IMG/VR virus record: IMGVR_UViG_3300032087_003621
Coordinates: 1 to 64,000 of that record
Strand: one strand, 5' to 3'
Length of the DNA: 64,000 nucleotides
Origin: a virus
The notes beneath the pieces were generated by a model. That model did no database searches and was not told the origin of the DNA. It was given only the letters and a program-made list of their open reading frames with translations. Shown piece after piece: positions 3,209 through 16,308 of this stretch (positions are counted from its first letter, which is position 1; each line of letters begins with the position of its first letter). The translations under genes and the position numbers were made by a program.

Positions 3209-3612
3209 AAACATTTAAGGCATTTATTAACGAAGCGTGTTGCGACGATTGTCGTGAACCCGACTTTGATGCCGAACCAGAGTTCGCTTTGTTCGAAGGT
3301 AGAAACGTTCCTCTTGAACGACCTATGTTTGAAGAGGCGCAACCTGAGTTGAACAAACCAAAGGCAGGTGGTCCTAAAAAGTATTACGTATATGTCAAGG
3401 ACCCCTCAACGGGTAACATTAAGAAAGTTACTTGGGGAGATACTACAGGGTTAAAGGTTAAGTTGAATGACCCTAAAGCCCGTAAGTCGTTTGCTGCGAG
3501 ACATAAGTGTTCGCAACAGAATGATAAGACAACGGCAGCCTATTGGGCGTGTCGTTTACCTCGTTATGCAAAACAATTAGGATTGAGTGGTGGTGGAAAC
3601 TACTTCTGGTAA
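3205..3612 (+). CDS. DUF6321-like phage protein with capsid-targeting-like N-terminus
   Basis: MKTFKAFINE start. VYVKDP..GNIKKVTWGD...RKSFAARHKC...AAYWAC motif. Confidence 0.65.
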   Translation: MKTFKAFINEACCDDCREPDFDAEPEFALFEGRNVPLERPMFEEAQPELNKPKAGGPKKYYVYVKDPSTGNIKKVTWGDTTGLKVKLNDPKARKSFAARHKCSQQNDKTTAAYWACRLPRYAKQLGLSGGGNYFW

Positions 3613-5611: not shown

Positions 5612-6127
5612 ATGAAGAATAAAAGTTTTGATGTAAGCGAAGACTCTGCTATCACTATACCGCTTCGTAATTTGATTGGATTAATTATCACAGCGGGCAT
5701 TGTTGTGATGGGTTATTTCCAACTGGTAGAACGCATCACTTTTCTCGAGCGAGACTTGACCTTGGCAAGTCAATATATTGAACAGAACTCTCATTTTAGA
5801 CAGAAGTGGCCTCTTGGAGAGTTAGGTGCATTGCCCGATGATATGATTCAGAACAGTAAGATTCAAGCACTCGAAAAAGTGGTTGAGGTTAATACTGAAT
5901 TCCGAAACAACTGGGCACCACCTGAAGAGGTACAACAATCAGTTAAGATAAATAATGAACAAGAGATAAAGATAAAGTATCTTGAAACTCGTATTCAGTT
6001 GTTAGAGACGCAGCTGAAAGATTTCAATAGAATGGAAATTACACAATCTCGTCACGAATCTGAGATTGAAACTCAAGCCGAGAAGATTGAAACATTATTC
6101 GATCTTTGGAACAATAAGAGCAACTAA
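5612..6127 (+). CDS. TM-anchored coiled-coil protein
   Basis: N-terminal TM (LIGLIITAGIVVMGYF) followed by heptads. Confidence 0.55.
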   Translation: MKNKSFDVSEDSAITIPLRNLIGLIITAGIVVMGYFQLVERITFLERDLTLASQYIEQNSHFRQKWPLGELGALPDDMIQNSKIQALEKVVEVNTEFRNNWAPPEEVQQSVKINNEQEIKIKYLETRIQLLETQLKDFNRMEITQSRHESEIETQAEKIETLFDLWNNKSN

Positions 6128-7680
6128 TGGCGCAGTTTGATACCAATAAACAGACGCTGAACCGAAATAACAATGTGTTATACGAAGTTCAGATGGTCGC
6201 AGACCAATATGGTCGTATTCACAACGAAGGTGCGACTTCACGATCTGCTTTTGGTGAGAATATTTCTATTCCGGTCAATCCAGTTTTTCAATTGGATGGA
6301 CTTTACGGATTAGATCCACAACTGTTTGAAACCTTTACCGGCACCTTTACCGGAAATCCAGGCACCGCAACTACCACTGACACATTGATGCAAGTGACAA
6401 CTGATGCGACCGGTATTGGTTCCTATGGGGTTATTCGTTCTCGACGTGCTGTTAGATATCGTCCCGGCCAAGGTGCACTGGGAAGATTCACCGCAAAGTT
6501 TAGTACTGGTGTTGCTGGGTATACACAACGTGCGGGTTTCTTTACACAAGAACAAGCAGTTCAGGTTGGTTATGATGGAACATCGTTTGGTGTTCTGAGA
6601 CAGAACGGCGGTAAAGCACATATTGAAATTCTCACTGTAACTGCCACTGCAACTGAAACTGTACAGGTAGAACTGGACGGTGTTAGCACTGGAGTAGCAA
6701 TTCTTTCTACTGATACTAATCAAGAAGCGGCAGTAAAAATTGCAGATGCTTTTGCGGGTAATGCTAGTTGGATTGTTGAAACTTACGACGATAAAGTTTG
6801 TTTCTTGGCAACAAGTGTTGGTCCCAAAGCAGGTGCTTTTAGTTACACTGGTACTTCTGCTACACTTACTACTCAACAAACAGGTGTGGCACACACGGAT
6901 CTATGGACTCCTCAAGCAGAATTTAATCAAGACACTTTAGATGGAAATGGTCCATCCAAAGTTACTATCGACCCACAGAAACTCAATGTGTATCAAATCA
7001 ACTTCCGTTGGTTGGGCGCTGGAGAGATTCGTTATGCTATCGAGAATCCCACCAATGGTGATATGATTCATTTTCATCACGAGCATTATAGTAACCGTAA
7101 CACTGATGTTCACATCGATAACCCTTCTCTGAAAATTGGTTATGTTGCCGCATCACTGGGTGGTGATGGTACAAGTATTGTGGTTGAAGGTGCGTCGATG
7201 ATGGGTGCTATCGAAGGACTGATCAATACTACAAAATTACCAACTGCAACTTTCCGAGAAAGTACTACTAACCTAAATGCCAACACTTGGTATCACGTTT
7301 TAACAGCGGCCAATAATAGAGTGTTTAGAAACAAAATCAACACAAGAGAAATAATATTAAAAAATATTAATTGCGCTTTTAGTGGTACTGGTCCTGTTAC
7401 AGTTGCTCTAATTCTAAACCCAACAGGAGTAGCAGACACCAGAGAGTTCAACTCTATAAACGAATTTTCTTCAGTATCCACCTCTAATACAACTTCCGTA
7501 GTGACATTGGGAGACCAAAGATTAATGTATATCTTTGATGTTGAAGCGGGTGGTTCAGGTACTCAAGTTCTAGAAGACCTTCGAATTGCAATCCCTCCAG
7601 GCAATGAAGTGTCTGTTCTGATTAGAAGTTCCCAGCAAATAACTCGTAATGCTATCTCTATGTCTTGGATTGAAGATTAA
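6127..7680 (+). CDS. Beta-rich putative virion structural protein
   Basis: 517 aa, Thr/Gly-rich. SAFGE..., RYRPGQG and WLGAGEIR motifs seen in phage structural proteins. Confidence 0.5.
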   Translation: MAQFDTNKQTLNRNNNVLYEVQMVADQYGRIHNEGATSRSAFGENISIPVNPVFQLDGLYGLDPQLFETFTGTFTGNPGTATTTDTLMQVTTDATGIGSYGVIRSRRAVRYRPGQGALGRFTAKFSTGVAGYTQRAGFFTQEQAVQVGYDGTSFGVLRQNGGKAHIEILTVTATATETVQVELDGVSTGVAILSTDTNQEAAVKIADAFAGNASWIVETYDDKVCFLATSVGPKAGAFSYTGTSATLTTQQTGVAHTDLWTPQAEFNQDTLDGNGPSKVTIDPQKLNVYQINFRWLGAGEIRYAIENPTNGDMIHFHHEHYSNRNTDVHIDNPSLKIGYVAASLGGDGTSIVVEGASMMGAIEGLINTTKLPTATFRESTTNLNANTWYHVLTAANNRVFRNKINTREIILKNINCAFSGTGPVTVALILNPTGVADTREFNSINEFSSVSTSNTTSVVTLGDQRLMYIFDVEAGGSGTQVLEDLRIAIPPGNEVSVLIRSSQQITRNAISMSWIED

Positions 7681-7684
7681 ATCT

Positions 7685-7692
7685 TATAAATA
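7685..7692 (+). promoter_or_regulatory. T4-type late promoter
   Basis: Exact TATAAATA upstream of the secreted-protein cluster. Confidence 0.8.
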
Positions 7693-7714: not shown

Positions 7715-8278
7715 ATGGTAATGCGATACTTACTATTCTTTGTTATGGCTTTCTGTGCGAGTGTGACATTTGGACAAGAAGTGACACCCCCTGATGACAC
7801 GATTCGAACTGAATCAATCACAGATAGCAATGTGAATACAAACTCGACAACGACAACGACTTTAAAGTCGCCACCCGCGTCAGCTATTACTCCAACGATT
7901 AATACGTCAAACTCAGACTTATGTACGTTCGGAGTTGCTGGTGCAATTCAAACACAGATTCTAGGTATCTCGACTGGCACTCAGGTAACAGACGAGAACT
8001 GTGAACGACTCAAACTGTCTAAGACTTTGTACGATATGGGTATGAAAGTCGCAGCAGTTTCTACGATGTGTCAAGACCCAAGAGTCTTTGACGCGATGAT
8101 GATGGCTGGCACACCATGTCCGTATGACGGATTGATTGGGGAGCAAGCAAAAGCAGCATGGGTTACCAATGAAGAAGCTCAACCTGGCATGAAAGAAAAG
8201 GAAGGGATGAATGAAGGTACTAAGACGCTGCTTGGCGGTGCTGGTGTTGCTAGTTTACTCTTGTTACTCCTTATCTGA
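7715..8278 (+). CDS. Secreted Cys-containing protein with amphipathic beta-hairpin
   Basis: Signal peptide. C-TFGVAGAIQTQILGISTG-...-C hairpin, then helix, MCQD and GTPCP. Hydrophobic C-terminus. Confidence 0.65.
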   Translation: MVMRYLLFFVMAFCASVTFGQEVTPPDDTIRTESITDSNVNTNSTTTTTLKSPPASAITPTINTSNSDLCTFGVAGAIQTQILGISTGTQVTDENCERLKLSKTLYDMGMKVAAVSTMCQDPRVFDAMMMAGTPCPYDGLIGEQAKAAWVTNEEAQPGMKEKEGMNEGTKTLLGGAGVASLLLLLLI

Positions 8279-9101
8279 AGAGTTTGACACCTCACCTGTT
8301 TACGGGACAACGAACAATGCTGCACAGTTTGGTTTGAACTGGGTAATGACTCGTGTGCTCCCACAGCAGGCAGGGTTGCAGGTAAGCAATGTAGTGTATC
8401 GATACGAAGTTGAGAAGAACACTGAGGACGATATGTTGGTTCATGTGCAGAACGAAAATGCACGAGGGCCTGGTTATATTTTTCGTTCGACTGATGATTG
8501 GTCGGGTATACCAGGCAATTCAATTAACAAAGCGGTGCCTGTAGATTACATCGACATCTCTTACTGGGGTGCTGGGTCAATTGAGGTTGAGGGGTTTGGT
8601 ACGGTCAAAAATCCGGAAGTGTATTACACATATCAGTATGACCCTTGTTTTGACCCTCAGTCTAATCCTCAGTGTCCAGGCTATCAGGACCCTTTTGTGA
8701 TTGAATTAAACGAGGTCGAAGTTTATGATCCTCTTGAAGACGATGTGGTACAAGAAGAGTTGGATCGGAAAGCAAATAGGAAAGCACAAGAAGATGACGA
8801 GAAAGAAAAGGCTAGGCAAAAGGCTTTAGAGAAAGTAGAAGAAATTGAAAAGAGACTGGAGCAGTTACTCGGTATTGCTAATGAGACTGACATAGCAGGT
8901 GATGCACAACGCTTGCACGATATGTTGATGGCAATACGACAACTACCTCAGTCTTACCAAGCTCAACTGGTCGGAGGATCTTATCCGGATGGGGCAATGC
9001 CACCTGACGGAAAGATACCATCGAACAGCAGAGGATTGAGACAAGGGCTTGCTTCAGAAATGAAGCATCAAGAACTTGTCCGACTACAGTATGAAAAGTA
9101 G
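8211..9101 (+). CDS. Secreted protein: beta domain, DPC...CPGY motif and acidic coiled coil
   Basis: Signal peptide-like N-terminus. YDPCFDPQSNPQCPGY. Overlaps the upstream gene. Confidence 0.6.
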   Translation: MKVLRRCLAVLVLLVYSCYSLSEEFDTSPVYGTTNNAAQFGLNWVMTRVLPQQAGLQVSNVVYRYEVEKNTEDDMLVHVQNENARGPGYIFRSTDDWSGIPGNSINKAVPVDYIDISYWGAGSIEVEGFGTVKNPEVYYTYQYDPCFDPQSNPQCPGYQDPFVIELNEVEVYDPLEDDVVQEELDRKANRKAQEDDEKEKARQKALEKVEEIEKRLEQLLGIANETDIAGDAQRLHDMLMAIRQLPQSYQAQLVGGSYPDGAMPPDGKIPSNSRGLRQGLASEMKHQELVRLQYEK

Positions 9102-9128
9102 TAAACAAACCAAAAAGGGAGAACAGCA

Positions 9129-9632
9129 ATGTTCAATAAAACTTTTATATCATTGGCGGTACTTATGACCTTTTGTGCTAGTGCGTTTGCGGAAGAGATT
9201 CCCATTAGCGGTTCAGTGGAATCTAAGTGCATCGTAACGCAAGACACTGCGGGAGTTTACGGTAACGCATCACCCGAAGTACTCACTACGGCGAGTGCAT
9301 CTGGCGGTGTACATCCGGTTGTACGGTTTGATGTGATTCAGGCTGATTATTATATGGCTCGAATTTCTCATCCTACTTCCTTTACCGAATCTCCTGTCTT
9401 GAACGATGTCGTTACTTGGACTGGCAGCACGTCTGTTGACCAAGTTAGCGATGCCGGGATGTCTGCTTATGATACCAGTAAAGTAGAGTATGATAACGTA
9501 ACCGAAATTGACCTTTCAATCGCAGGTTCTACGTGGTTTAAAGTAGAATCAGAAGCTGATTATGGGTACAATAAGGCGTTTCCTGGCGGTCAGTACCAAG
9601 CGGTTGTAACTGCTGAGTGTATCGCAATTTAA
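9129..9632 (+). CDS. Fimbrial pilin-like protein (chaperone-usher/Csu-SCPU-like)
   Basis: Signal peptide ending ASAFA. Mature N-terminus IPISGSVESKC. C-terminus PGGQYQAVVTAEC, typical of the pilin last strand. Confidence 0.55.
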   Translation: MFNKTFISLAVLMTFCASAFAEEIPISGSVESKCIVTQDTAGVYGNASPEVLTTASASGGVHPVVRFDVIQADYYMARISHPTSFTESPVLNDVVTWTGSTSVDQVSDAGMSAYDTSKVEYDNVTEIDLSIAGSTWFKVESEADYGYNKAFPGGQYQAVVTAECIAI

Positions 9633-9642
9633 GGAAAATCAT

Positions 9643-10020
9643 ATGAAAAAGATCATGTTGTTGTTGACGTTACTAAGTGGGCAAGCCTCGCTTGCCCACG
9701 ACTTTACTCCGACGTACCCGAAGTTGGAAACAACTCATATTACGGGTGCGTTGAAGGCAAGTATGAAACTATTCAATAAGCGTGATGACATTAGGTATTA
9801 TAGGGTAAACGTTTATGACAGTGAGTGGAACAAGATTCCGTTTATTGTCCAAGGCGGGAAAGTTATTAATGTAGAGTATCTTGATACAAAGAGATTTGAT
9901 GTCTATATTCAGGAGAAGAACAGAGATAGAGTAACTTATATTTGCACTAAGTCTCTGACACTCCAAGACGGATCTACGAAATCAATTATGGCTTCGAGGA
10001 TTTGCTCGAAAGTGAAATGA
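9643..10020 (+). CDS. Single-domain fimbrial chaperone-like (PapD_N-like) secreted protein
   Basis: Signal peptide. P...MKLFNKRDDIRYYRVNVY...PFIV...INVEYLDTKRFDVYI parallels the PapD N-domain pattern. Terminal Cys pair. Confidence 0.5.
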   Translation: MKKIMLLLTLLSGQASLAHDFTPTYPKLETTHITGALKASMKLFNKRDDIRYYRVNVYDSEWNKIPFIVQGGKVINVEYLDTKRFDVYIQEKNRDRVTYICTKSLTLQDGSTKSIMASRICSKVK

Positions 10021-10469
10021 AACTTATGAGAATATTGTTATTTGTGTTGTTGTTGTTTGTATGTGACCGAGTGTATGCGGAGTCAAGTTCTTTGAACTTG
10101 GCATTACCGTCATCGCCGGGTTCATATGCATCAGACAGAGTAAGAGCGGGTAACTTAGAGTGCTCTAACGCTATCGGTGGTGCTACGGCACTAGAGTTTG
10201 GCGTTGTGGGTATTCTAAACCAAAATGGTCCGTACAATAATAGGTTCGGAAGTTCCTATACCATGCCGGACTATTACGACTCGAACGAACTTGTCAAAGA
10301 CGTTGGCGTCTATGCGAAGATTACGATTCCGCTAGACAAACCTAAAGAACGTCTTAACTGTAACACTCTCTATAAGCTGGAACTCGAAAGAAGAAGACTA
10401 GAGATACAAAGATTACAAGCAGAGGTCGCGCAGCTGCGTAATTTGCAGTTTGCTGACGATGAGGAGTAA
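10017..10469 (+). CDS. Secreted beta-hairpin/coiled-coil protein, candidate oligomeric outer-membrane pore
   Basis: Signal peptide. Strands ATALEFGVVG and DVGVYAKITIPL are bracketed by a Cys pair, followed by a C-terminal coiled coil. ATGA coupling to the upstream gene. Confidence 0.55.
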   Translation: MKLMRILLFVLLLFVCDRVYAESSSLNLALPSSPGSYASDRVRAGNLECSNAIGGATALEFGVVGILNQNGPYNNRFGSSYTMPDYYDSNELVKDVGVYAKITIPLDKPKERLNCNTLYKLELERRRLEIQRLQAEVAQLRNLQFADDEE

Positions 10470-10471
10470 AC

Positions 10472-10930
10472 ATGGCTGAAGTAGAATTTGCAGGAATGAC
10501 CTTCAAAGGTGGGAAGATGATGATTCTTCTCACAGCATTATCCACTGCGGGTGGTGCGCTTTGGGGTGGTTTCGAATTCTATAAGGACTACATGGACATG
10601 AAGGAGATAATCCAGAATATCGATGTGGGAGAGATAGAAGCACGAAACAATGTCATCGAAACAAAACTAGATGAAGCGATTGATTACTCAAGAAGCATTA
10701 AGAACGATCTGAGAGATGACTTCAATCGGATGGAGAAGAATGTGGACAGAATCGAAGACCAGAATCGGGAAATGGAAGATAAAGTCAAAGATATGATTGA
10801 CAAGGCGACTGAACGTTTTGACAATCGTAGGGAGAGTTTACAGACAGATACAGAACTGAAAATCAAAGCGGTTGAAGATCGCTTGAATAGTAAGATTCAA
10901 ACTGCACTGGACAACCCTCTCGCTGACTAG
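10472..10930 (+). CDS. Inner-membrane-anchored coiled-coil protein
   Basis: N-terminal TM (ILLTALSTAGGALWGGF) followed by long heptad repeats. Confidence 0.6.
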   Translation: MAEVEFAGMTFKGGKMMILLTALSTAGGALWGGFEFYKDYMDMKEIIQNIDVGEIEARNNVIETKLDEAIDYSRSIKNDLRDDFNRMEKNVDRIEDQNREMEDKVKDMIDKATERFDNRRESLQTDTELKIKAVEDRLNSKIQTALDNPLAD

Positions 10931-10948
10931 GATAGGGAGTACAGACTC

Positions 10949-11155
10949 ATGCGTGTTAAAGTAACGTTTGTTAATGGAAACACGATATATGGAAGATTGA
11001 CGGGTGAAGAAACTCACACGCTCAAATCTGAGGATGTCATTCCTTGGATTATGAACGATGATAGAATGTTCATACCTTTCATTCAACCAAGCGGTGCTGA
11101 GGTTCATTTGAACAAATCAAATATCGCTTATATCGTGTTAGATGAGGAGGAGTAA
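10949..11155 (+). CDS. DUF6812-like small protein (paralog of 12059..12256)
   Basis: V.VTFVNG..IYG...MNDDRMFIPF...HLNKSNI pattern. Confidence 0.55.
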   Translation: MRVKVTFVNGNTIYGRLTGEETHTLKSEDVIPWIMNDDRMFIPFIQPSGAEVHLNKSNIAYIVLDEEE

Positions 11156-11266: not shown

Positions 11267-11275
11267 CTCAGCGGG

Positions 11276-11302
11276 AGGGCACCTACGGGTGCCCTTTTTT
11301 TT
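11276..11302 (+). terminator. Rho-independent terminator
   Basis: AGGGCACC-TACG-GGTGCCCT followed by a T-run, between convergent genes. Confidence 0.85.
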
Positions 11303-11708: not shown

Positions 11709-12047
11709 ATGAGATACTTAATCATAGTAATTGGCGTCTTGTGTTTATTAGCTACTTGTTCAGTCAAAGCAAGTCCCTATATAGAAATCAAATCAGAACA
11801 TGTCTTCAAAGACTTTGCTTCTACTGACGCAGTACACCACACTCGTTTCGGTTATGAGAAAAAATCACTCACTGGCAACAAGATTTACTTTGAAGGTGGA
11901 CACATGACAGGTGGTTCGTCTTGGGAAGCAGGATATAAGACTCGTTTGTCTGACACGCTTATTGTCAAGGGTAAACTCGAAGGCAAACGTGAACGAGGTA
12001 AAGAAGCAAAGACTAAACTCGAAACTGAGATTCGATTTACTTGGTGA
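11709..12047 (+). CDS. Small outer-membrane beta-barrel protein
   Basis: Signal peptide, alternating amphipathic strands (RFGYE, IYFEGG, WEAGYK) and a C-terminal beta-signal ETEIRFTW. Confidence 0.65.
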   Translation: MRYLIIVIGVLCLLATCSVKASPYIEIKSEHVFKDFASTDAVHHTRFGYEKKSLTGNKIYFEGGHMTGGSSWEAGYKTRLSDTLIVKGKLEGKRERGKEAKTKLETEIRFTW

Positions 12048-12058
12048 CTATATAAAGT

Positions 12059-12256
12059 ATGGAAACCTTTAGAATAGTGAAAGTTATAGTATCGTTATCG
12101 GACGGGACTCGTTGGCTTGATTGTGAAATCTATTTACCAACGGGTTCACGTTTGTCTGATGTCATGAATGATGAAAGAAAATTCTTGCCTATTAAAAGAG
12201 AAGGTAAAGAAATTGTAGTGCATAAAGATAAAGTAGTATTTTTAACTGAATCTTAA
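12059..12256 (+). CDS. DUF6812-like small protein
   Basis: LSDG...IYLPTGSRLSDVMNDERKFLPI...VVHKDKV. Confidence 0.6.
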   Translation: METFRIVKVIVSLSDGTRWLDCEIYLPTGSRLSDVMNDERKFLPIKREGKEIVVHKDKVVFLTES

Positions 12257-12258
12257 AA

Positions 12259-12266
12259 TATAAATA
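12259..12266 (+). promoter_or_regulatory. T4-type late promoter
   Basis: Exact TATAAATA. Confidence 0.8.
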
Positions 12267-12293: not shown

Positions 12294-12650
12294 ATGGAAA
12301 CCTTATCCGCTATGTTCGGTGATACGCTGTGGATATACACAGCTATCGCCGGTTCTGTTTTTGGCGCTGCGTTTTTGGCGTGGTTCAAAGACACTCATAT
12401 GGCACTCTGGTGTTATGCTAAATTCGACCTTTTCTTAGATTCACTCGTCGATAAATTTGGATGGGAATGGTTGCAGGATGACCCCACAGCGTGGCGAAAG
12501 AAATATCCTAAAGTCACCAAAAAAATTGATGAACTTGAATCTCGTATTGCACAGTTAGAAAAACACAGTCACCCGTGTAAAGAACTACACGAGTTTGACG
12601 TGTGGCCCGAACTTGATGCAAGAATCAAAAAACTGGAGAAAAAGAAATGA
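12294..12650 (+). CDS. Membrane protein with coiled coil
   Basis: N-terminal TM. GGAG RBS. Confidence 0.6.
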   Translation: METLSAMFGDTLWIYTAIAGSVFGAAFLAWFKDTHMALWCYAKFDLFLDSLVDKFGWEWLQDDPTAWRKKYPKVTKKIDELESRIAQLEKHSHPCKELHEFDVWPELDARIKKLEKKK

Positions 12651-13420
12651 TTAGTAAACTATCACATAAAGAAAGAAGTGTACTATTTGCAAATCTGAGC
12701 AGTATCGCATACCTTGATGAAAAAGAAGCGAAGAAAGCTGTTAAAGCATATGGTTTCACTCAAGTAGAGTTTTATAATCGAGATGGTGCTCAAGCATATC
12801 GTTTTCAAAACAAAAATGACATGGTAATTGCATGTCGTGGAACTCAACCCACAGAATTTAATGATATCAAAGCAGACCTAAGAGCAATTCCAGTTTTATC
12901 CGAGACGGTCAGTAGAGTGCACAAGGGATTCAAGGGTGAAGTTGATGAACTATGGCCTATGATTCTAGAAGACTTAAGTCCTAAAGCTGTTGGTAAGAGA
13001 AAGGTGTGGGTAACAGGTCACAGTCTTGGTGCTGCAATGGCGACAATCGTCGCTGCACGATGTTCTCTTGACAAGGAAAAGATTCCTGACGTTGAAGTGG
13101 AAGAACTATACACCTATGGTTCCCCACGTGTTGGTTGGAATAAGTATTGTAAAAGTTTACCTGTAACACATTATCGTTGGAGAAACAATAATGATATTGT
13201 GACCACTGTTCCTCCAGTCTTTATGGGTTATAAACATCACGGCGAATCTCGTTACATTAACGCACATGGTTTGGTCAGAAATTTGTCTGGTTGGCAATTG
13301 GTCAAAGATAAGTTGCGTGGTATGTGGATGGGTATTAAAAGTGGGCGTATAGATAATTTCAGTGACCATAGTATTCACGAATACATTCATCATTTAGAAC
13401 GATGGTGTAAAGAAGATTAA
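12647..13420 (+). CDS. Class 3 lipase (alpha/beta hydrolase)
   Basis: IACRGT, VHKGF, VTGHSLGAA nucleophile elbow, YTYGSPRVG, NNNDIV, DHSI. Confidence 0.9.
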   Translation: MISKLSHKERSVLFANLSSIAYLDEKEAKKAVKAYGFTQVEFYNRDGAQAYRFQNKNDMVIACRGTQPTEFNDIKADLRAIPVLSETVSRVHKGFKGEVDELWPMILEDLSPKAVGKRKVWVTGHSLGAAMATIVAARCSLDKEKIPDVEVEELYTYGSPRVGWNKYCKSLPVTHYRWRNNNDIVTTVPPVFMGYKHHGESRYINAHGLVRNLSGWQLVKDKLRGMWMGIKSGRIDNFSDHSIHEYIHHLERWCKED

Positions 13421-13830
13421 TGGCATATAGTGATAAAGTAATGGACCACTACGAAAACCCTCGTAACGTTGGTCGTTTTGACGAAGACGATGAAGATATC
13501 GGCACAGGTATGGTGGGAGCGCCTGCCTGTGGCGATGTAATGAGATTACAGATAAAGGTGAATGATGATGGAATTATCGAAGATGCTCGGTTTAAAACCT
13601 ACGGATGCGGAAGTGCTATCGCTTCTTCCTCCCTCCTTACCGAATGGGTTAAAGGTCGCAGTCTTGATGAAGCTGGGAATATTAAAAACACCGACATCGC
13701 AGAAGAACTCACACTCCCCCCAGTCAAAATCCACTGTAGTGTACTTGCCGAAGATGCGATAAAAGCAGCGATTAATGATTATAGGATGAAACATGAAGAC
13801 ACAACCAAACTCAAACAAAGCACAGAATAA
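13420..13830 (+). CDS. iscU: Fe-S cluster scaffold IscU
   Basis: MAYSDKVMDHYENPRNVG, GAPACGDVM, FKTYGCGSAIAS, LPPVKIHCS. Confidence 0.95.
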   Translation: MAYSDKVMDHYENPRNVGRFDEDDEDIGTGMVGAPACGDVMRLQIKVNDDGIIEDARFKTYGCGSAIASSSLLTEWVKGRSLDEAGNIKNTDIAEELTLPPVKIHCSVLAEDAIKAAINDYRMKHEDTTKLKQSTE

Positions 13831-14221
13831 ACTTTGGGGTGAAATTACGGGTTCGTTGCTCAAGGCACTTCCCAATCCAAGTAAAGGGTATGAACAAAGA
13901 ATTTCTATTCCAGAATTTACTTTTCTGGGAGTCAAAGGTCAACCAGATTTTGGGAACATCACCATTTGGTTTTATGGCGACAAAAAGACCATTGAACTCA
14001 AATCGTTAAAAGAATACATCTATCAGTATCGTGATATCATTGTAAGTTATGAACGATGTATTGATGTAATGTATCAACAACTTTATGCGATGTACACACC
14101 AGAACGATTGCGTATAGAGATTGAGTTTGCTCCGAGAGGAGGAATAAGTAGTAAGATGACCGCTGATTCTGATTGGGGTCATCTGGGCGGTTCCGATAAA
14201 CTTTGGCAGCATCATAAATGA
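13793..14221 (+). CDS. QueF-like T-fold protein lacking the catalytic Cys
   Basis: PEFT..., GQPDF, the QueF motif ELKSLKEY and PRGGIS are present. The usual SLCP is replaced by FLGV. Confidence 0.75.
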   Translation: MKTQPNSNKAQNKLWGEITGSLLKALPNPSKGYEQRISIPEFTFLGVKGQPDFGNITIWFYGDKKTIELKSLKEYIYQYRDIIVSYERCIDVMYQQLYAMYTPERLRIEIEFAPRGGISSKMTADSDWGHLGGSDKLWQHHK

Positions 14222-15176: not shown

Positions 15177-15337
15177 AGACATTTAAACAATTCACAGAAA
15201 CAATGACAACAAGTTCTGGTATTGCTGGACTTCCACCTGATGACCCACCCGGCCCTCGAAAGAAGAAGAAAAAATATAAAGTATTAACTCGTGGATATAT
15301 AGAAGTAGCAGGGAAAAGAAAAAGAGTTGTAAAATAA
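15173..15337 (+). CDS. 54-aa basic protein with capsid-targeting-like N-terminus (not in ORF track)
   Basis: GTG start after GGAG. MKTFKQFTE...IAGLPPDDPP...KKKKK. Confidence 0.6.
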   Translation: MKTFKQFTETMTTSSGIAGLPPDDPPGPRKKKKKYKVLTRGYIEVAGKRKRVVK

Positions 15338-15795
15338 TGCCATACATCATATTATTATTTGTTATTGTTCTTGGTGGAGGATTTGCTTATCACCAAGTGA
15401 CTGTTTCTAATCTAGAGGCAGCGAAAGCACAACTAGAGGCAAACAACCGCACCTTGAAAGAGAATCAGGTGCAGATGGAAAAAGCAGTGGAAACTGCACA
15501 AGCGTCACTTGCTGCAGCGGAAGCAAATGCAAAGAAATCAGAGGCGGCAATGTCTGCACTCACCGCAAGGAATAATGAGTTACAGCGAGAGAAAGATAAT
15601 GCTATGAAGATCTTTAAAGATCACAACTTAACGAGACTTGCTCGTGCGAAGCCAGGGATGATTGAAAAACGCATGAACGCTAAAACAGAACAAGTCTTTC
15701 GAGACCTAGAAAATGATACGAAAGAACTTATGGATGCTGATGATACTCCTGACCCTACAGGGGTGTCAGATGCTGAAGGCAGTGGGACCAGTTAA
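15337..15795 (+). CDS. Putative i-spanin (Rz-like)
   Basis: N-terminal TM plus long Ala-rich coiled coil, followed by lipoprotein genes. Confidence 0.65.
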   Translation: MPYIILLFVIVLGGGFAYHQVTVSNLEAAKAQLEANNRTLKENQVQMEKAVETAQASLAAAEANAKKSEAAMSALTARNNELQREKDNAMKIFKDHNLTRLARAKPGMIEKRMNAKTEQVFRDLENDTKELMDADDTPDPTGVSDAEGSGTS

Positions 15796-15898
15796 ATATA
15801 ATTCACCATGCGGAAGACAAGTCATGGTATGTGAACAGTGGGGAAGTAAAAAATTATGTACATGTGTAAACCGATCATCTATCTCTCGCTCGCTTTAA
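15713..15898 (+). CDS. Possible overlapping Cys-rich lipoprotein
   Basis: Basic N-terminus, hydrophobic core and LQGC lipobox. Overlaps both neighbours. Confidence 0.4.
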   Translation: MIRKNLWMLMILLTLQGCQMLKAVGPVKYNSPCGRQVMVCEQWGSKKLCTCVNRSSISRSL

Positions 15899-16308
15899 CA
15901 GCGGGATGTTCTTGGATGCCTCGCCTTGAGTGGGGACCAGAACCAGAAATTATTCCACCAGAACCCCAAATTATAACAGTGACGGAGAAGGTTCCTCTGC
16001 GAATCTATCAACCGCCGTTACCACAGGAGATTGACCTTCTTAACGTAAACTTCTTCGTCATCACTGAAGAGAACTATGAAGAGAAGAAGAAAGAAGTTGA
16101 GAAGATTCTTGACGGCAATTTCGTGGTGTTTGCTTTGACACCCGATGGCTATGAGAAAATGGCAGAGAACTTCCAAGAAGTTCGCCGTTATGTGAGGCAA
16201 CAGAAAGAACTCATCATTTACTATCGTGAAGCGACAACCGAATCAGAAGGTACTACTGCCGAAGATTGGTTAGAAAACAATGAGCCAAACAGTCAAACTT
16301 CTAATTGA
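15856..16308 (+). CDS. Putative o-spanin (Rz1-like lipoprotein)
   Basis: LTAGC lipobox, Pro-rich segment, ALTPDGYEKMAEN..EVRRYVRQQKELIIYY. Confidence 0.7.
   Translation: MYMCKPIIYLSLALTAGCSWMPRLEWGPEPEIIPPEPQIITVTEKVPLRIYQPPLPQEIDLLNVNFFVITEENYEEKKKEVEKILDGNFVVFALTPDGYEKMAENFQEVRRYVRQQKELIIYYREATTESEGTTAEDWLENNEPNSQTSN

Follow-up and report, generated by a model that had tools for sequence, protein, structure and literature searches.

What does a small exported protein do when its gene is translationally coupled to the gene of a pilus-type chaperone-like protein, and no usher goes with the pair? The question is raised by a plus-strand ORF of 150 codons in a viral DNA (ATG at 10017, TAA at 10467–10469; hereafter the target protein). 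Its start codon overlaps the TGA stop codon of the chaperone-like ORF in the sequence ATGA (10017–10020), and the next ORF begins only 2 nt past its own stop codon, preceded by GAGGAG. The original prediction had proposed that the target protein forms a CsgG-like outer-membrane channel, in which many copies each donate a β-hairpin and the assembled pore replaces the usher for pilin export. The ORF and the elements on which this was based, namely the coupling, a signal peptide, two amphipathic strands bracketed by a Cys pair, and a C-terminal coiled coil, were all found at the locus. As described below, the target protein looks more like a tie to the cell wall or the inner membrane than an outer-membrane pore.

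The window (the whole 64-kb stretch of DNA that was analysed) is the first part of a 146-kb viral record with an estimated completeness of 85%. The virus is a marine T4-like myophage; a 517-aa protein encoded at 6127–7680 shows 44% identity to virion proteins of the Synechococcus phages S-T4 and S-B43. As listed in Table 1, seven tightly packed plus-strand genes (7715–11155) lie between a T4-type late-promoter motif and a strong terminator-like hairpin, and the target gene is the fifth. The motif, TATAAATA, occurs seven times in the window, only on the plus strand and each time close upstream of an ORF start. The number of copies by itself does not exceed chance, as 18 of 100 shuffles reached the same count. 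I infer from the motif that the block is expressed late, and the hairpin likely ends the late transcript.

Table 1. Features of the seven-gene block and of the target protein encoded by its fifth gene
Feature	Position	Strand	Basis or remark
T4-type late-promoter motif, TATAAATA	7685–7692	+	23 nt 5′ of the first gene of the block
Block gene 1, exported 187-aa protein with a hydrophobic C-terminal tail	7715–8278	+	Sequence; phrog_20531, E 2e-13
Block gene 2, exported 296-aa protein	8211–9101	+	Sequence
Pilin-like exported β-rich protein	9129–9632	+	644 homologues; first and last strands each contain Cys
Single-domain PapD-like (chaperone domain 1) exported protein	9643–10020	+	AlphaFold2 model, pLDDT 85.6, pTM 0.72
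Target, signal peptide, residues 1–21	10017–10079	+	Sequence; in all full-length relatives
Target, N-terminal hydrophobic-x-hydrophobic-Pro motif, LNLALP	10092–10109	+	Conserved in the alignment; coil in the monomer model
Target, short polar hairpin, strands 39–44 and 47–52, with D40, R43, and C49 (10161–10163)	10131–10172	+	Model and alignment
Target, long hairpin, strands 58–67 and 93–106	10188–10334	+	AlphaFold2 model; E60, G62, Y99, and R/K101 conserved
Target, hypervariable tip loop, residues 68–92	10218–10292	+	Rich in Asn, Gly, Tyr, Asp, and Pro
Target, C115 (10359–10361) followed by helix 115–149 with coiled-coil heptads	10359–10463	+	Model and alignment
N-terminal transmembrane helix and coiled coil of about 110 aa	10472–10930	+	Sequence
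Small 68-aa protein, last gene of the block before the terminator-like hairpin	10949–11155	+	Sequence
Terminator-like GC-rich hairpin followed by a T run	11273–11298	+	11 pairs, 6 of them G-C

The first gene of the block is the only one in it with DNA similarity to Pelagibacter podophages, which is confined to its middle part (73% to HTVC115P over 216 nt). Its product ends in a Gly-Gly-Ala-Gly sequence and a Leu-rich tail with no basic residues after it. Since both proteins have a Cys-bracketed hairpin, it was considered as a paralogue of the target protein, an idea that was rejected at an hhalign probability of 1.6%. The second gene has no Pfam family, and a gene matching it in size and position occurs in related phage contigs. 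The last gene of the block is a paralogue of another small gene at 12059–12256 (E 2e-6), which matches DUF6812; neither product has a signal peptide, and the pair flanks a small Phage_OMP gene (PF24653, E 5e-8; 11709–12047) adjoining the block. In another marine phage contig (L028), a Phage_OMP gene (7006–7329) lies directly 3′ of the gene for the transmembrane coiled-coil protein. If the cassette has any role in the outer membrane, the conventional candidate for it is the Phage_OMP gene. Farther downstream, about 1.3 kb past the terminator-like hairpin, the window encodes a class 3 lipase/esterase with a GHSLG motif (12647–13420; Lipase_3, E 6e-19; phrog_21992 esterase/lipase, E 2e-26), which lies 3′ of a 118-aa ORF (12294–12650) and of a separate TATAAATA at 12259. 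A NifU/IscU-like gene (13420–13830) shares its final stretch with a gene for a QueF-like protein (13793–14221; PF14489, E 4e-18).

How well is the target protein conserved, and which parts of it? A word-indexed search collected 1333 homologous clusters, nearly all of them unnamed metagenomic proteins on contigs of up to 161 kb, and an exhaustive HMMER search gave 196 family representatives at 50% identity. Judged by these numbers, the target is far beyond a chance ORF. The same kind of search found 644 clusters for the pilin-like protein and 78 for the chaperone-like protein; among the components of this unnamed and very common envelope cassette, the target protein is the best conserved. The family is carried by 183 cultured phage records, including 60-kb and 83-kb vibriophages and an rV5-like Erwinia phage, and, of 401 genomes sampled from the phylum of Hansschlegelia quercus, 10 have a homologue. 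The signal peptide is of the Sec type, with a basic n-region, a Leu/Val/Phe core, and a VYA sequence followed by Glu. In an alignment of 70 diverse relatives, down to about 25% identity, C49, C115, and G62 are invariant, and P31 (the Pro of the LNLALP motif; 68 of 70), D40, Y99, and E129 are nearly so. The Cys pair that had been noticed around the hairpin is a family trait; exactly two Cys residues after residue 22 occur in 185 of 192 relatives of near full length. In contrast to these positions, the tip loop varies greatly in sequence and length, the spacing from G62 to Y99 ranging from 15 to 42 residues. The alignment indicates that the conserved elements are under strong selection. The LNLALP motif might serve in strand donation.

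The family is nearly nameless in databases. The target protein has no match in Pfam (none at E≤1), NCBIfam, or the PDB sequences; among PHROGs it matches only phrog_37374, of unknown function, and in the ESM Atlas only unnamed viral clusters. No Pfam family recurs among the 70 relatives. One relative is annotated in an IMG record as "Type IV pilus biogenesis protein CpaD/CtpE", a name that was rejected because no Pfam match supports it. Literature searches did not find the family or the module.

The AlphaFold2 model of the target protein, built from the 70-sequence alignment, has a mean pLDDT of 79 and a pTM of 0.47. It contains four strands (39–44, 47–52, 58–67, and 93–103) and a helix (115–149) with pLDDT values of 85–98. 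In fold searches with this model, only the helix was matched: the best hit had an E value of 4.9 with Foldseek against the PDB, a Z score of 2.4 with VIA-align against 48,161 chains, and an E value of 0.045 in BFVD, the last to unnamed phage proteins. Both strands of the proposed amphipathic hairpin exist in the model. Strand 93–106 is cleanly amphipathic, whereas strand 57–67 is so only in part. L59, F61, V63, V98, A100, I102, I104, and L106 make up the hydrophobic face, and the conserved E60, G62, Y99, and R/K101 are on the polar face, which also carries the hydrophobic V64 and T/V103. In distant relatives, the distal half of strand 58–67 is polar. In the phage subfamily, the distal hairpin (GVVGIL and VKDVGV) is hydrophobic on both faces, so that some membrane insertion may be possible. 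The other hairpin has only six residues per strand and many conserved charges.

The C-terminal helix has the heptads of a coiled coil, as had been predicted, with hydrophobic residues at the a and d positions (Y119, L123, L/R126, I130, L133, V137, and L140). The g positions carry Glu122 (61 of 70 relatives) and Glu129 (64 of 70), and the e positions 127 and 134 are basic. Such heptads would fit a parallel coiled coil of two to four strands, not a ring of 8–16 chains. A second conserved hydrophobic seam (L118, L121, and L128) runs along the outward face of the first three turns of the helix. Together with the C49–C115 disulfide, this seam suggests that the sheet may turn its hydrophobic face to the helix of the same chain and not to lipid. 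A non-globular model, with its pTM of 0.47 and no fold match in the PDB, is what is expected of an oligomerising stalk protein.

What are the partners of the target protein? The product of the gene coupled to it had been called chaperone-like, and its model indeed has the fold of PapD domain 1. The top Foldseek match was DraB (E 5e-5), followed by FaeE, PapD, Caf1M, FimC, and SafB, while VIA-align gave FimC (Z 10.6, rmsd 2.5 over 98 residues), SafB (10.4), YadV (9.6), CfaA (9.5), PapD (9.4), and CsuC (9.0). Eukaryotic MSP domains, which share the PapD-like fold, score similarly (Z up to 9.7). The protein aligns solely to chaperone residues 1 to about 125. With 125 aa in all, signal peptide included, it lacks the second Ig-like domain, which forms the subunit-binding cleft. 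The pilin-like protein, encoded just upstream, matches no Pfam family and no PDB sequence, also when an 18-member profile is used. Its C34 and C164 are nearly invariant and join the first and last strands, a pairing that may indicate a complete fold that does not depend on a donor strand.

Is this trio found elsewhere? The order pilin-like, PapD-like, and target gene is present in the window phage and in other marine T4-like phages, in the T5-like Vibrio phage pVp-1 (gp077–079; hhalign probability of the target relative 99.4%, E 5e-21), and in an 83-kb vibriophage. Bacterial chromosomes show this gene order as well. Among the marine T4-like contigs, the same six-gene block recurs amid different surroundings. 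In the rV5-like Erwinia phage, three small genes lie within a tRNA island in a different order, with the target gene in the middle. In pVp-1 (L027), a lipoprotein gene with an ISGC lipobox (3221–3424) is located between the trio and the holin and endolysin genes, and its product may be this phage's own spanin component.

In the eight bacterial loci examined, the target gene and one or two pilin-like genes form a small operon of their own, and a small two-Cys gene is also present in at least five of the eight. These operons are flanked by nadABC, rpsI, and genes for a pfkB kinase, an amidase, or a PEP-synthase regulator; these flanks indicate that they are not prophages. The window pilin-like protein matches its bacterial operon partner with 26% identity (E 1e-9), and the small PapD-like protein matches its bacterial counterpart at E 0.002. 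On these matches, the partners in phages and bacteria are homologous. Some bacterial relatives of the target protein carry a C-terminal peptidoglycan-binding domain, either OmpA (P0198, E 1e-14) or SPOR (P0264, E 5e-7). In Vibrio pectenicida, the relative has an OmpA_C domain after the helix (E 1e-14). The module of this species (L002, 5715–8792) is expanded: two pilin-like genes (172 and 305 aa) and two small two-Cys genes of PapD-like size (167 and 115 aa) precede the target–OmpA_C fusion. By Pfam, the window protein itself has no OmpA_C or SPOR domain. OmpA_C and SPOR-type domains are the wall-binding ends of envelope tethers such as OmpA, Pal, MotB, and RlpA. Thus, the fusions after the helix suggest that the C-terminus faces the cell wall and that the N-terminal module is membrane-side.

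The claim that no usher accompanies the module was borne out by a search for PF00577, which has no match anywhere in the 146-kb phage record and none in 8 of 10 bacterial genomes carrying the module. In the other two, an usher lies about 440 kb away in one, and the match is below the threshold in the other. The absence of ushers from the phage record and from these eight genomes implies that the module works without one. The target protein, with 150 aa and no match to the family, does not resemble a fimbrial usher, which is a protein of about 800 aa with a 24-stranded barrel, a plug, and N- and C-terminal domains.

Another possible partner is encoded directly 3′ of the target gene. Homologues of this inner-membrane coiled-coil protein follow the target gene in other phage contigs (33% identity, E 5e-28; 77% identity, E 1e-86), and in the marine phages examined the gene always does so. 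No homologue was found beside the bacterial operons. From gene order, I propose that the protein is a partner of the target protein in marine T4-like phages only. It has no spanin PHROG. A separate pair of genes in the window likely encodes a two-component spanin: the product of 15337–15795 has a transmembrane helix and a coiled coil and matches phrog_739 (Rz-like spanin, E 2e-11) as well as, weakly, DivIC, and the product of 15856–16308 is a lipoprotein with the lipobox LTAGC that matches phrog_812 (Rz-like spanin, E 2e-12).

Could many target hairpins together form a homo-oligomeric β-barrel in the outer membrane, with the helices in the periplasm, that replaces the usher for pilin-like subunits delivered by the PapD-like protein? 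The target protein would then be the outer-membrane exit of a minimal usher-less fibre pathway of three genes, consisting of a half-size chaperone, a subunit, and a hairpin-barrel oligomer. Without an usher in cis, and mostly also in trans, anything that leaves the cell needs a new exit, and the target protein is the sole core component that is not Ig-like. The two faces of its hairpin, with E60, Y99, and R/K101 conserved on the polar one, would suit a barrel, and the hypervariable loop rich in Asn, Gly, Tyr, and Asp resembles surface loops. The peptidoglycan-binding fusions locate the C-terminus to the periplasm, which implies that anchoring on the membrane side falls to the N-terminal part. 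A few relatives also match outer-membrane barrel families weakly in Pfam (OMP_b-brl_3 in 2 of the 70, best E 9e-4). However, each chain has a single hairpin of membrane length, and at least 12 chains would be needed for a folded Ig-like subunit, while the heptads look like those of a coiled coil with two to four strands. A strand that spans the outer membrane has about 9–12 residues. In the shortest relatives, which have 15 residues between G62 and Y99 and a distal half made polar by Ser, Gln, Asp, and Arg, about seven hydrophobic-face pairs are left, which is short for such a span. The polar face is spoiled by V64 and T/V103. The family has neither a C-terminal aromatic β-signal nor a conserved lipobox; a lipobox-like pattern appears in only 17 of 270 relatives, and in the window protein LFVC is followed by a signal peptidase I-type site, VYA before Glu. 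The domains at the ends of bacterial relatives fit a tether, and the canonical small Phage_OMP protein encoded nearby could serve in the outer membrane instead. No sequence or fold likeness of the target protein to CsgG, secretins, ushers, or any solved structure was found. Thus, what stands of the original interpretation is the export, the disulfide, a build suited to oligomerisation through a coiled coil, the chaperone-like neighbour, and the missing usher, but not the pore, and both the barrel and the three-gene fibre pathway built on it seem very unlikely. If they were true after all, marine and enteric phages and about 2–3% of the sampled genomes of one bacterial phylum would have in common a new secretion route through a small oligomeric channel of the outer membrane that belongs to a new class.

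Two further readings concern what a phage might gain from the module. The target protein on the outer side and the inner-membrane coiled-coil protein might form a spanin-like periplasmic bridge that helps to break the outer membrane at lysis. The latter does have the topology of an i-spanin, with an N-terminal transmembrane helix and a periplasmic coiled coil, a late-promoter motif is present upstream of the block, and the pVp-1 trio lies just 5′ of a small lipoprotein gene, a holin, and an endolysin. On the other hand, the phage owns a recognisable Rz-like pair 5 kb downstream of the block, and the trio is also present in bacterial loci outside prophages (beside nadABC, rpsI, pfkB-kinase, and amidase genes). 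In other phages, it follows tail-fibre-sized genes or sits in the tRNA island, away from lysis genes. A lysis device is therefore highly improbable, and the target protein itself was rejected as a spanin because it has no conserved lipobox and no spanin PHROG and because of the separate pair at 15337–16308. Alternatively, the trio may build a layer, in the periplasm or on the cell surface, by which a receptor is masked or removed, with the target protein as a structural piece of this layer and not as an anchor or a pore; the layer would exclude other phages or keep progeny off debris. The widely differing contexts of the cassette (a late operon, the 3′ side of tail-fibre-sized genes, and a tRNA island) would suit such a cargo, as would its travelling with Phage_OMP in marine phages, and the fast evolution of the tip loop would be in keeping with an arms race. 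However, late expression fits the exclusion of incoming phages poorly, and the chromosomal copies in free-living bacteria require another rationale. This reading, its proposed purposes included, is on the unlikely side.

The reading that I tentatively prefer, although it falls a little short of being probable, is that the target protein is the coiled-coil anchor, or stalk, subunit of a self-contained usher-less module. It is based on the constant gene linkage, the wall-binding fusions, the heptads, the second seam, the non-globular model, and the conserved gene for the inner-membrane coiled-coil protein. The core of the module would have three parts: the pilin-like β protein, the single-domain PapD-like protein, and the target protein. 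After Sec export, the C49–C115 disulfide would staple a small four-stranded β head to the start of the long helix, and the helices of two to four chains would come together as a parallel coiled coil. The head, with its hairpin and its N-terminal strand motif, would hold the Ig-like partners, lean on the inner face of the outer membrane, or both. The far end of the stalk would be fixed to another layer of the envelope. In bacteria, this might be the task of a basic tail or of the peptidoglycan-binding domain (OmpA-like or SPOR) fused to the protein, and in marine T4-like phages that of the co-translated inner-membrane coiled-coil protein. In the window phage, the module would presumably act late in infection. 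Some points count against the anchor: the phage protein has no peptidoglycan-binding domain of its own, its distal hairpin may insert into a membrane, 2 of the 70 relatives weakly match a barrel family, and, if the pilin-like protein has a complete, non-polymerising fold, nothing is left to anchor.

The new findings are that the trio is present in ordinary bacterial chromosomes without an usher in the genome, some copies being fused to peptidoglycan-binding domains, that the length of the hairpin argues against a pore, and that a separate spanin pair weakens the idea of a lysis device. Cultured vibriophages and an Erwinia phage carry the cassette and, together with the bacterial copies, make the system approachable at the bench. 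Any outcome would show what it is that many marine phages export to the envelope of their host late in infection, and the PapD fold would gain a new use beyond chaperone-usher pili.

How does the module compare with known systems? The chaperone-usher systems (PapD, FimC, Caf1M, or CsuC with PapC or FimD) share with it the domain-1 fold of the chaperone, an exported β-rich protein with pilin-like termini encoded before the chaperone-like protein, and Sec export and disulfide bonds in all parts. In contrast, the chaperone-like protein of the module has one domain instead of two, the usher is missing, and the target protein has no counterpart there and does not resemble the usher barrel with its 24 strands. 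CsgG, the curli channel, is a nonameric lipoprotein in which each protomer gives four strands, as two transmembrane hairpins, to a 36-stranded barrel. The target protein is likewise a small exported protein for which a barrel of hairpins from many protomers had been proposed. However, it has no sequence match to CsgG (PF03783) and no conserved lipobox, and its model has one long hairpin, not two, beside the short polar one, as well as a coiled-coil tail, which CsgG lacks. CsgG chains were absent from the Foldseek and VIA-align lists. Moreover, CsgG exports unfolded subunits, whereas the PapD-like partner in the module implies folded ones.

The resemblance to spanins (Rz/Rz1) lies in an exported coiled-coil protein that adjoins an inner-membrane-anchored coiled-coil protein, with a late-promoter motif. 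Unlike them, the target protein has no lipobox or spanin PHROG, and its family extends to bacterial loci that are not prophages. The tethers between the outer membrane and peptidoglycan (Lpp; OmpA, Pal, and YiaD with OmpA_C; RlpA with SPOR) offer a parallel coiled-coil stalk, and some bacterial relatives of the target protein share their arrangement of a membrane-side head and a wall-side binder, ending in OmpA_C or SPOR. By contrast, the phage target protein is paired with an inner-membrane coiled-coil protein instead of having a wall-binding domain of its own, and it is accompanied by Ig-like partners. Thus, its likeness to the tethers is a functional analogy and not membership, and its head would be a new disulfide-stapled β module in place of a lipid anchor or an eight-stranded barrel.
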